NCBI GenBank assembly: GCA_963666485.2
Contig: CAXXUO010000001.1
Span: 1,248,001 to 1,312,000, forward strand
Length of the DNA: 64,000 nt
Origin: Syntrophorhabdaceae bacterium
GTDB lineage: Bacteria > Desulfobacterota > Syntrophorhabdia > Syntrophorhabdales > Syntrophorhabdaceae
Direction: 5' to 3'
Shown: piece after piece, positions 40,779 to 43,277 of the stretch
How positions within the stretch are numbered: the stretch's first letter is position 1
Layout of the letters: every line of letters starts with the position of its first letter
Notes under the pieces: generated by a model
What the model was told of the DNA's origin: nothing
The model's database searches: none
What the model saw: the letters and a program-made list of their open reading frames with translations, nothing else
Translations under genes and position numbers: made by a program

Positions 40779-41981
40779 ATGCCCCAATATCAATGGGAAG
40801 GGAAGACAGTTTCAGGCGAAACGCAGAAGGGCAGCACGAAGGCCGCATCGGTAGACCAGTTGCGCGCTCTCTTGAGACGAGACGGGATCATCCTTGGAAA
40901 TGCTGTTGAAAGCAAGGAAAAAGAATTCAAGTTCAATCCCAAAAAGAAGATAAAGAACCTTGAGATCCTGCTCTTCACCCGCCAGCTTTCAACCATGATC
41001 ACATCGGGGCTCCCGCTCGTGCAGTCCCTCGATATCCTGGGAAATCAGATCGAAGACCAGCACTTCAAGGGCATGGTAAAAGATATCAAGGAAAAAATCG
41101 AAGGCGGCTCCCGCTTTGCGGATGCATTGAGGGATTATCCGCAATGCTTCGACGAACTGTTCATCAACCTCGTCGTCGCCGGCGAAGAAGGCGGCCTTCT
41201 CGACAACGTCCTCCAGAGGCTTGCCATTTATATTGAAAAATCGGAAAAGCTGAAGAAGAAGGTAAAAAGCGCAATGATCTATCCGGTCGCGATCATTGTC
41301 GTTGCCCTCGTCGTCGTGATCGTCCTGCTTCTTTTCGTCATACCCGTTTTCGAAAAGATGTTTAAGGAAATGGGTGCCGAACTGCCCACTCCCACGGTGG
41401 TCGTCATCAAGATGAGCCAGTTCATGCAAACGTACTGGTATATCATCATCGGTTCTATCGTCGGCCTGGTCGTCGCCTTTAAGTATTATTACAAGACAGA
41501 GAACGGCCACCGCAGCATGGACCGTCTCATGCTGAAGCTTCCCCTGTTCGGGGTCCTCACCATCAAGGCATCCGTTGCCCGCGTAACAAGAACGCTGGCG
41601 ACACTCCTCATGAGCGGCGTCGCCATCCTCGAAAGCATGCTGATCGTTGCCAAGGTCGCCGGCAACAAGATCGTCGAAGAGGCGCTCATGGTTGCGCGTG
41701 CACGGATCAGTGAAGGCCGGACCATGGCGGAGCCCCTCGAACAGGCCGGTATCTTTCCCCCGATGGTCGTCCAGATGGTCCAGGTCGGAGAGTCTACCGG
41801 CGCCCTCGACAGCATGCTCAACAAGATCGCCGATTTTTACGAGGAAGATGTTGACAACCTGGTGACAAACCTCACCGCCATGATGGAGCCCATGATCATG
41901 GTCTTCCTCGGCGTCGTCCTCGGCGGCCTCATCATCGCAATGTACCTCCCGATCTTCAAACTCGGCCAAGCTGTCGGATAA
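40779..41981 (+). CDS. pilC: type IV pilus platform protein PilC (GspF family)
   Basis: FTRQLSTMI.SG, AGEEGG, SAMIYP, GESTGALD, AMYLPIF. Confidence 0.93.
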   Translation: MPQYQWEGKTVSGETQKGSTKAASVDQLRALLRRDGIILGNAVESKEKEFKFNPKKKIKNLEILLFTRQLSTMITSGLPLVQSLDILGNQIEDQHFKGMVKDIKEKIEGGSRFADALRDYPQCFDELFINLVVAGEEGGLLDNVLQRLAIYIEKSEKLKKKVKSAMIYPVAIIVVALVVVIVLLLFVIPVFEKMFKEMGAELPTPTVVVIKMSQFMQTYWYIIIGSIVGLVVAFKYYYKTENGHRSMDRLMLKLPLFGVLTIKASVARVTRTLATLLMSGVAILESMLIVAKVAGNKIVEEALMVARARISEGRTMAEPLEQAGIFPPMVVQMVQVGESTGALDSMLNKIADFYEEDVDNLVTNLTAMMEPMIMVFLGVVLGGLIIAMYLPIFKLGQAVG

Positions 41982-41985
41982 AGCA

Positions 41986-42295
41986 AAAAGACCTCTCTCG
42001 CCCGCTTCGCTCGAGCTCACAGAGGTCACAGAGAACTGCGAAGGGGAAAGACTTTGCCGGCTGGTCGCGGAGCCGACCACGACCAGCCGGCACTTTCGTC
42101 GGCTTCGCCGAAGAAAAGAAAAAAAACAATACAAGGAATATTAACAGTCCAAGTGATCCTCCTGCCGAAGGCAGGATCGAAGATGCCGCGGGAGGCTGGT
42201 CGGCTCCGGGCTCCCGCGGCCTCCGCCTTTCTCCGCGAACTCCGTGAACTTTAGAGAGGAGCTTTAGCGACGAACGGGCGAGAGAATGTTCTTTT
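41986..42295. other. dyad-symmetric structured intergenic element (MITE-like or ncRNA)
   Basis: Terminal IR TCTCTCGCCCG/CGGGCGAGAGA; inverted 9-mer repeats; two hairpins with complementary 12-nt loops. Confidence 0.7.
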
Positions 42296-43277
42296 ATCCT
42301 TCGAACCTGGCGACCATGCCGAGGTCGCGTATCATTTCGAGGTCGGCTGCCGTGTCTCGTCCGAGGGTTGTGAGGTAGTTGCCGGTCAGCAATGAATTGC
42401 ATCCGGCGACCATGGCGAGGGGGAGGAGCTGCCGCAGGTTTTTTTCCTTGCCCCCGCAAAGTTTAATGTCCTTGTCGGGGAGAATGAAGCGGTACAGTGC
42501 CACGGTCAGGAGAATTTCAATCGGTGTGAGGGAGGGTTCTTTTTCAAGCGGGGTGCCGGGGATGGCGTTCAGGATGTTGATGGGAACGGAATCGACATTG
42601 AGCTCCCGCAAGGTCATTGCCATCTCGATACGGTGCTCCATTTTTTCTCCGAGCCCTATTATTCCGCCGGAGCATACGGTGAGCCCGGCTTCCCGGGCTA
42701 TCCGCACTGTGTCGGTATCTTCCTTGTATTCATGGGTCGAGCAGATGTTGTCGAAAAAGCTGCGGGACGTCTCCAGGTTGTGATGGTACCGGTAGAGACC
42801 TGCCGATTTGAGGTTGCGGGCCGTTGTCTCATCGAGCATCCCGAGGGAGCCGCAGGGTTTTATTCCCATTTCATTCAGGAGTTCTATCGCACGGTAAATG
42901 GTCTTCCACTCGTCATCCGTTTCGATCCGCGTGCCGCTCGTGACGATGCTGAACATGTGCACACCGCTGTCAAGGGCCGCGCGGCCCCTTTCAGCGATCT
43001 CCTGCGCGGACACGAGAGGGTATACGGGCGCATCGGTGTGATAGTGGGCCGACTGTGCGCAAAAACGGCAGTTTTCGGGACACACTCCCGATTTTGCGTT
43101 GATGATGCCGCAGAGGTTCACGGAGTTTCCCTTGAAATGTTCCCGTATCTTCGACGCCCTGGCCAGAAGTCCGAAAACATCTTTCCGTCCTTCCGTGTAC
43201 AGGTCGATTGCGTCCTTTACCGTGATCGATCGCGAAGCGATCGCCTGGTCGGCAAGCGTGTCAAAAAGAGATGCCAT
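42294..43277 (-). CDS. bioB: biotin synthase
   Basis: KSGVCPENCRFCAQS, YHHNLET, SVPIN, GNYLTT. Confidence 0.96.
   Translation of the reverse strand: MASLFDTLADQAIASRSITVKDAIDLYTEGRKDVFGLLARASKIREHFKGNSVNLCGIINAKSGVCPENCRFCAQSAHYHTDAPVYPLVSAQEIAERGRAALDSGVHMFSIVTSGTRIETDDEWKTIYRAIELLNEMGIKPCGSLGMLDETTARNLKSAGLYRYHHNLETSRSFFDNICSTHEYKEDTDTVRIAREAGLTVCSGGIIGLGEKMEHRIEMAMTLRELNVDSVPINILNAIPGTPLEKEPSLTPIEILLTVALYRFILPDKDIKLCGGKEKNLRQLLPLAMVAGCNSLLTGNYLTTLGRDTAADLEMIRDLGMVARFEG

Follow-up and report, generated by a model that had tools for sequence, protein, structure and literature searches.

Anatomy of the element

The window is a 64,000-nucleotide stretch of a Syntrophorhabdaceae genome, designated G000 here (other G numbers denote genomes of relatives and L numbers individual loci). 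Within it, two convergent genes, named pilC and bioB in the initial annotation and in agreement with our reading of their translations, flank an element that fills the gap between their ORFs: it begins 4 bp past the stop codon of the left ORF (41981, plus strand) and abuts or overlaps that of the right ORF (42294, minus strand). Arm-to-arm alignment and comparison with the 20 two-ended copies of G000 resolve it into two homologous arms, inverted around a 49-bp centre, with the following features:

40779..41981, plus strand: left neighbour, 400 aa, pilC
41986..42295, no strand: the whole gene-less element
41986..42015, plus strand: left terminus, with an A-tract/AAAAGAC, the 11-bp inverted repeat (41994-42004) and a tip mini-hairpin
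42004-42010, minus strand: left tip mini-hairpin, GC-GAA-GC on this outward strand, from a comparison of tip variants
42016..42033, plus strand: two tandem 9-mers of the left arm, the same unit as in the Geobacter class 2 sites
42055..42092, minus strand: hairpin A, 13-bp stem, 12-mer at 42068-42079
42099..42111, minus strand: inner mini-hairpin of the left arm, GAA triloop on this strand
42112..42160, no strand: A-rich centre, the site of the GxxExxY gene in the full form
42161..42175, plus strand: inner mini-hairpin of the right arm, GAA triloop on this strand
42185..42220, plus strand: hairpin B, 10-bp stem, complementary 12-mer at 42197-42208; the apex motif of hairpin A, inverted
42231..42248, minus strand: two tandem 9-mers of the right arm
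42256..42295, minus strand: right terminus, with a longer exchangeable tip module (42256-42274), the 11-bp inverted repeat (42275-42285) and a T-tract
42294..43277, minus strand: right neighbour, 327 aa, bioB

Going inwards, each arm has an A-tract with AAAGAC, followed by an 11-bp core and by a small tip hairpin that is exchangeable. Next come the tandem 9-mers and a stem-loop whose apex is conserved, and the innermost part is a mini-hairpin. The terminal 11-bp inverted repeat is perfect, and the T-tract of the right terminus overlaps the stop codon of the minus-strand gene. All features that the initial annotation had listed (the extent of the element, its terminal repeat, 9-mers, hairpins and mini-hairpins) are present where it had placed them. 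Its description of the two loops as exact 12-nt complements holds for the window copy in a refined form: the 12-mers are complementary, but both close internally, leaving six unpaired bases each. Position 42195/42210 of hairpin B is a G.G mismatch here; in other copies the corresponding stem extends to 12 bp.

The 310-base sequence gives a much more stable fold than its shuffled versions, whether taken as RNA (z-score -8.45) or as DNA (-7.09), and 0 of 100 shuffles are equally stable. A scan against Rfam, from which no family had been recognised earlier, likewise returned none at the gathering score, the six weak matches having E-values of 0.54-9.6 (the best at 20.3 bits against 79). Contigs from a public sequencing run, which probably represents the source sample rather than an independent one, join both flanks to the ends of the element without any difference.

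A family of copies in the genus

The element is not a single copy: G000 contains 20 two-ended copies and a further three solo arms. Matches are found in all 19 other genomes of the genus and in three of 21 more distant genomes. From G000 and the loci of its relatives we assembled a sample of 158 distinct arms and 58 two-ended elements, leaving out duplicates and elements shorter than 230 bp. Both stem-loops are present in 36 of these 58 elements, and for 102 of the 158 arms the nearest arm belongs to the same genome. The 20 copies of G000 fall into four groups: those with the exact loop pair (seven), with an altered loop B (one), with hairpin B broken by a 46-nt insert (nine), and with hairpin B lost (three). 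In the 12 copies whose hairpin B is disrupted or deleted, hairpin A is unchanged.

At one locus of G000 (L021; C1:1409027-1411273) two full elements and a solo arm alternate with genes for a metallophosphoesterase, an ERCC4-domain protein, a GxxExxY protein and a DinB-like protein. An integron-like cassette array was considered for this region (C1:1409.0-1411.3 kb; 2.5 elements alternating with single genes) and rejected because most copies sit singly between host genes. Elsewhere in the same genome (C2:648161, C9:443266 and C9:493228-494824) solo arms or element pairs lie beside BrnT, RelB, AbiEi-type and other small genes.

Another structure recurs inside these elements: a bulged hairpin of 46 nt, which has a co-varying stem of its own, is present 12 times in G000 (C1:15599, C1:1161546, C2:648218, C9:22571 and eight more). 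Each time it lies within one of the elements, where it takes the place of the terminal tip or of a section of a hairpin stem. A scan of species genomes for it yielded 39 loci (L102-L140), among which several deltaproteobacterial ones carry it at the tip of a different repeat family and others look like chance coding matches.

Hairpins maintained one by one

The initial annotation had read the differing stems and complementary loops as a sign of selection, possibly on a kissing-loop RNA, i.e. a transcript folded with loops A and B paired. The G000 copies taken by themselves lend this some appeal: the predicted folding of the window copy is strong, its two 12-mers could pair with -24.7 kcal/mol as free strands, and seven of the eight G000 copies with both hairpins intact retain exact complementarity. 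The wider sample speaks against it, with exactly complementary loops in only four of 28 two-hairpin elements of relatives, or 11 of 36 overall. The mean edit distance between partner loops is 2.44, against 2.20 +/- 0.24 for random re-pairing within genomes, and 84% of 5000 within-genome shuffles have a distance as low as that observed; compensatory change preserving loop-loop complementarity was therefore not found above random re-pairing in these 36 elements. The frequent destruction of hairpin B beside an unchanged hairpin A and the self-closure of each 12-mer to a 6-nt loop point in the same direction. The two loops are one apex motif repeated at inverted ends, and are complementary by symmetry because the arms are inverted homologues. 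We accordingly regard a kissing-loop RNA under selection for such pairing as very improbable, and caution that complementary loops in a symmetric element are no evidence of a kissing RNA.

The stems tell a different story from the loop pairs. Among 18 hand-picked arms, 11 of 12 stem pairs display two-sided (compensatory) change, a value reached in 0 of 500 shuffles. In a set of 110 arms, admitted only if they had at least nine of 11 stem pairs, 42 different stems occur and 1179 of 1210 positions are Watson-Crick; hairpin A itself has a variable yet paired stem and a conserved apex motif. Since the stems are maintained while the loops vary independently, we conclude that selection acts on the hairpins individually, each as a paired stem presenting a fixed apex.

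Strand polarity of the arms

The hairpins also display a pronounced strand polarity. On the strand running out of the arm, the inner-hairpin loop is GNA in 66 of 100 arms and of the form G..A in 79, whereas the inward strand has neither form in any of the 100. Closure of the apex by a base pair is possible on the outward strand for 108 of 110 arms and on the inward one for 36 of 110. All these counts are taken over related copies rather than independent events. In the window copy, hairpins A and B both fold better on the outward strand, which for A is the minus strand. GCGNAGC and GCGNNAGC have been described as exceptionally stable DNA mini-hairpins with much weaker RNA counterparts (PMC13037366). 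The confinement of GNA loops to the outward strand of each arm points to single-stranded DNA, and we consider it likely that this is the folded form, with the arms acting as ssDNA through one strand each. The other possibility raised by the initial annotation, a hairpin-displayed site at each end of an ssDNA-type mobile element, gains support from the stem covariation, the strand-polarised GNA loops and the distribution of copies.

The GxxExxY nuclease gene and the full cassette

Matches to PF13366 occur at 16 places in 14 of the 20 genomes of the genus, and differ sharply in their relationship to the arms. In four genomes (G013, G004, G006 and G009) arms of this family face inward on both sides of a GxxExxY (PF13366) gene, at three unrelated sites, and the ORF runs through the inner mini-hairpin of the right arm (42161..42175 in the window copy) into the stem-loop of that arm. 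The single GxxExxY gene of G000 lies between two outward-facing arms; its inward arms are lost and it ends at a remnant of the inner hairpin. The remaining 11 of the 16 genes belong to a paralogue devoid of E-x-K and QxxxY, and none of these 11 has an adjacent arm. This paralogue (L071-L081, in 11 of the 20 genomes) has an N-terminal extension and D-x-M in place of E-x-K; these sequence features suggest that it is likely to be a domesticated, non-cutting form.

The association extends beyond the genus. Among 16 related genes drawn from 96 genomes of the order (G000 left out; G013, G004, G006 and G009 included), 11 have inward matches to the arm profile on both sides and 13 have a nearby match, the other three presenting the terminal tip motif, by eye, together with another repeat unit. 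PF13366 is the only gene found between inward arms at the loci examined. Y1 transposases are not similarly placed: none of the 30 Y1-transposase loci examined, out of 42 listed, has an arm, and a search of G000 with PF01797 gave no match. The link between the 9-mer arms and GxxExxY genes, which the initial annotation had tentatively put forward, is thereby confirmed, and the cargo ORF that it had suggested looking for in other copies is the GxxExxY gene. The first part of the A-rich centre of the window copy (42112..42160) aligns with the leader of the G013 cassette. We hold it very probable that the window element is a gene-less, internally deleted derivative of the GxxExxY cassette. In other genera (L146, L148 and L151) the cassette is found within tandem arrays of gene-less elements joined end to end.

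The cargo protein matches PF13366 with 139.9 bits (cut-off 22) and contains the GxxExxY and D...E-x-K motifs. The series E..D..ExK..QxxxY is the mark of RecB/Cas4-type nucleases. A structural model of the G013 protein (pLDDT 91) adopts a restriction-endonuclease-like fold; among solved structures the closest to it are enzymes of the lambda-exonuclease, Cas4 and Hjc types, which are weak matches throughout (best E 1.2e-3; best Z 8.1). Foldseek with this model gave no match at E <= 0.001, and a sequence search of solved structures with the nuclease returned one match at E 0.84 and nothing useful. We hence predict a PD-(D/E)XK nuclease, noting that the fold matches of the model are weak and do not specify a substrate.

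Matches to the arm-end pattern number 45, 40, 32, 29 and 23 in the five genomes with an intact gene, 29 in G008, in which no intact gene was found, and 0-19 in the other 14 (0-1 for the reversed-pattern control). The five intact-gene genomes are therefore five of the six richest, in a comparison where the genomes belong to one genus, are not independent and are in several cases incomplete.

A motif, AAGTAATA, was seen by eye shortly upstream of all five intact GxxExxY genes and of 14 of 20 four-helix-bundle genes of the genus (L066-L070 and L227-L250), and occurs 43 times in G000; it is possibly a shared cassette promoter.

Gene ends and their changing occupants

The elements are found preferentially at the ends of genes: of the 43 arm ends in G000, 24 are no more than 35 nt away from a stop codon that points into the element, as against 11% of random intergenic positions. 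There is no consistent direct repeat outside the 20 G000 copies, although their A/T-tract ends could hide a 2-bp target duplication.

The junction downstream of pilC has different occupants in the 20 genomes: members of this family in four, other repeat-armed elements in nine, gaps of less than 100 bp in four, a stub in one and other sequence in two. The G000 arms at this site have a similarity of 0.99/0.94 to paralogues in their own genome, versus 0.74/0.68 to copies at the same site elsewhere; all four same-family occupants resemble the other copies of their own genome more than each other, and that of G002 lies in the opposite orientation. Two further types of repeat-armed element are seen at this junction (L091, L093, L095, L096 and L099).

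A comparable alternation is observed at a second junction, which follows a gene that we take to be aspartase-like. Six genomes share the stop codon on the left and the flank on the right, and what lies between these is a full cassette (two genomes, 96% alike and inherited), a gene-less copy (one), a 7-mer element (two) or an 8-mer element (one). The earlier suggestion that the element is a period-9 counterpart of heptamer elements is borne out: in sister species, elements of either kind are found at the same junctions. By eye, the arrays of 7- and 8-mers at both junctions match those framing four-helix-bundle genes of the genus.

The four-helix-bundle (PF05635) genes of the genus (L227-L250) are framed by 7-, 8- or 9-mer arrays. 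As cargo of the present 9-mer arms they were rejected: the arms bracket them in 0 of 20 loci examined (out of 24 retrieved and 41 listed), with one weak downstream match.

Four other G000 sites were compared with the closest relative, in which three of them show terminal stubs and one shows nothing. Such stubs in nearest relatives imply that loss by deletion is also common, and is supported as much as gain. Terminal stubs of the element are likewise found at orthologous junctions in relatives (L207, L209, L210, L212, L217, L218 and L101), and G011 has a fully collapsed hairpin of about 30 bp made of both element ends.

A proposed mechanism and its alternatives

The explanation that we favour overall, with a probability of roughly 0.6, is that the window element is a gene-less cassette copy, the arms of which are recognised and cut by the nuclease, with recombination overwriting the elements that reside at gene junctions. 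On this model, the GxxExxY protein would act in trans on the outward strand of an arm, recognising and cutting it when replication, transcription or the extrusion of a cruciform lets it fold; host repair copying from another element would then write that element into the gene junction, overwriting the resident hairpin element. Such cutting and overwriting would account for the fixed sites, the changing occupants, the homogeneity within genomes, the swapped tips and the absent duplication. On this view the cassette would spread in the form of single-stranded DNA and overwrite rival elements that sit at gene ends. For the chain as a whole, with the nuclease as the driver of spread, the odds appear to us slightly short of even: against it stand G008, with its 29 arm-end matches but no intact gene found, and the nuclease gene of G000 itself, which has lost its inward arms. 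The homogeneity within genomes could also arise from ordinary gene conversion.

A conventional MITE mobilised in trans by a transposase of the DDE or Y1 type, with the GxxExxY gene as passive captured cargo, would also have terminal inverted repeats, no coding capacity and many dispersed copies; that some G000 arms adjoin toxin-antitoxin and other small genes also speaks for it. It is at odds with the lack of a consistent target duplication at 20 copies, with the absence of arms from the 30 Y1 loci examined, with the recurrence of the same gene family between the arms across several genera, its ORF running into the arm, and with a copy number that tracks the intact gene; taken together, these observations make it decidedly unlikely. 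Slightly better, and still unlikely, is a reading in which the elements are maintained by the host at the 3′ ends of RNAs as two-way terminators or stabilisers, dispersed as well as homogenised by ordinary recombination, with the nuclease gene hitch-hiking. Their location at stop codons and between convergent genes agrees with such a role; on its way out each transcript would pass through the far arm in the outward form, which folds better, and then through a T-tract, and most relatives have something hairpin-like at the pilC junction. Yet less than 100 bp suffices at that junction in four genomes, a simple terminator scan found no site inside the element, and the loops are dominated by GNA triloops (66, versus 6 GNRA) rather than by GNRA/UNCG tetraloops; the tie to an intact nuclease would also be left unexplained.

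Binding of a global regulator or nucleoid protein of the host, as published for the related Geobacter class 2 sites, would fit the tandem 9-mers in paired inverted sites (PMC2700814). The position at gene ends, the patchy presence at orthologous sites, the gene-bearing full form and the covariation of the hairpins all speak against such a function, which we judge very improbable as the explanation of the elements.

Returning to the cut-and-overwrite model, a broader generalisation may be entertained, which we offer as a speculation that is doubtful as it stands. There might be one hitherto undescribed class of selfish DNA with interchangeable parts: cassettes with arms composed of DNA mini-hairpins and of arrays of 7-, 8- or 9-mers, in which a leader motif common to all precedes the gene of a GxxExxY nuclease of the Cas4/RecB-like type or else that of a four-helix-bundle protein. 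Its members would home to gene 3′ junctions and overwrite each other there, needing no transposase and leaving no target duplication. The cut-and-patch reaction responsible would also swap the hairpin tips and be parasitised by the 46-nt hairpin as a micro-element. GxxExxY proteins would then constitute a new family of hairpin-directed, site-specific single-strand nucleases.

With these arms PF13366, a widespread nuclease family, gains a candidate substrate for which both the strand and the hairpins are specified, and an explanation is offered for an intergenic repeat family whose relatives had been interpreted as regulator sites. Unrelated repeat families take turns at one and the same stop codon, which suggests spread by replacement, a mode different from transposition.

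Relationship to known systems

The nuclease-cassette family is apparently undescribed: no published description of a GxxExxY cassette was found in the literature searched, which covers few subscription journals. Its 9-mer unit, on the other hand, is already in print as the class 2 'global regulator binding sites' of Geobacter metallireducens (Aklujkar et al., 2009; PMC2700814). In the portion of that paper available to us, these are paired, inverted tandem 9-mers of the CTCCGTG type at variable distance, with three tandem TCTCCGTS[Y] repeats, whereas the window arms have the same 9-mer core in two copies per arm; the printed form has a different terminus and neither the tip hairpin nor the apex stem-loop. 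That portion interprets them as regulator sites and does not mention a link to a nuclease. The survey of Steczkiewicz et al. (2012; PMC3424549) lists the family of the cargo protein, PDDEXK_3 (PF13366), with its function unknown and with multiple transfers; the entry mentions no flanking element.

Like bacterial MITEs such as ERIC, Correia and Chunjie (Delihas, 2011; PMC3184786), the elements are non-coding, dispersed in many copies and capable of a long fold-back, with terminal inverted repeats and no ORF, and are very probably related to a gene-bearing parent by internal deletion. They differ in that no consistent target duplication is seen, the one gene found between inward arms does not encode a transposase, and families replace each other at fixed junctions.

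Closer parallels are offered by two systems in which an enzyme gene is framed by hairpin repeats. REP/REPIN sequences with RAYT, and TIRtrons (Di Nocera et al., 2013; PMC3733652), also form inverted hairpin doublets after gene ends, with the gene of the cognate enzyme framed by the repeats. In contrast to these, the GTAG/CGTC tag is absent here, the arms are about 125 nt with AAAGAC-type termini instead of a 20-40-bp palindrome, and their HUH tyrosine transposase has no counterpart beside these arms at the 30 Y1 loci. The Ssn/SRM system (Chenal et al., 2025; PMC11893778) comprises a small single-domain nuclease gene flanked by hairpin repeats that are also found gene-less across the genome. 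We observe the same arrangement here, with hairpin repeats on either side of a predicted nuclease gene and further such repeats standing by themselves. For the Ssn nucleases, directional recognition of one DNA strand in their NTS/SRM hairpin repeats has been demonstrated, which is what the loop polarity of the present arms suggests. The differences lie in the enzyme, Ssn being a GIY-YIG nuclease and the cassette protein a predicted PD-(D/E)XK (PF13366) one with a restriction-endonuclease-like fold, and in the repeats, the SRMs being 20-50 nt long and these arms about 125 nt, with tandem 9-mers and three hairpins. By analogy, the cassette would work most like Ssn/SRM and REPIN/RAYT, while belonging to neither because its enzyme is neither GIY-YIG nor HUH.
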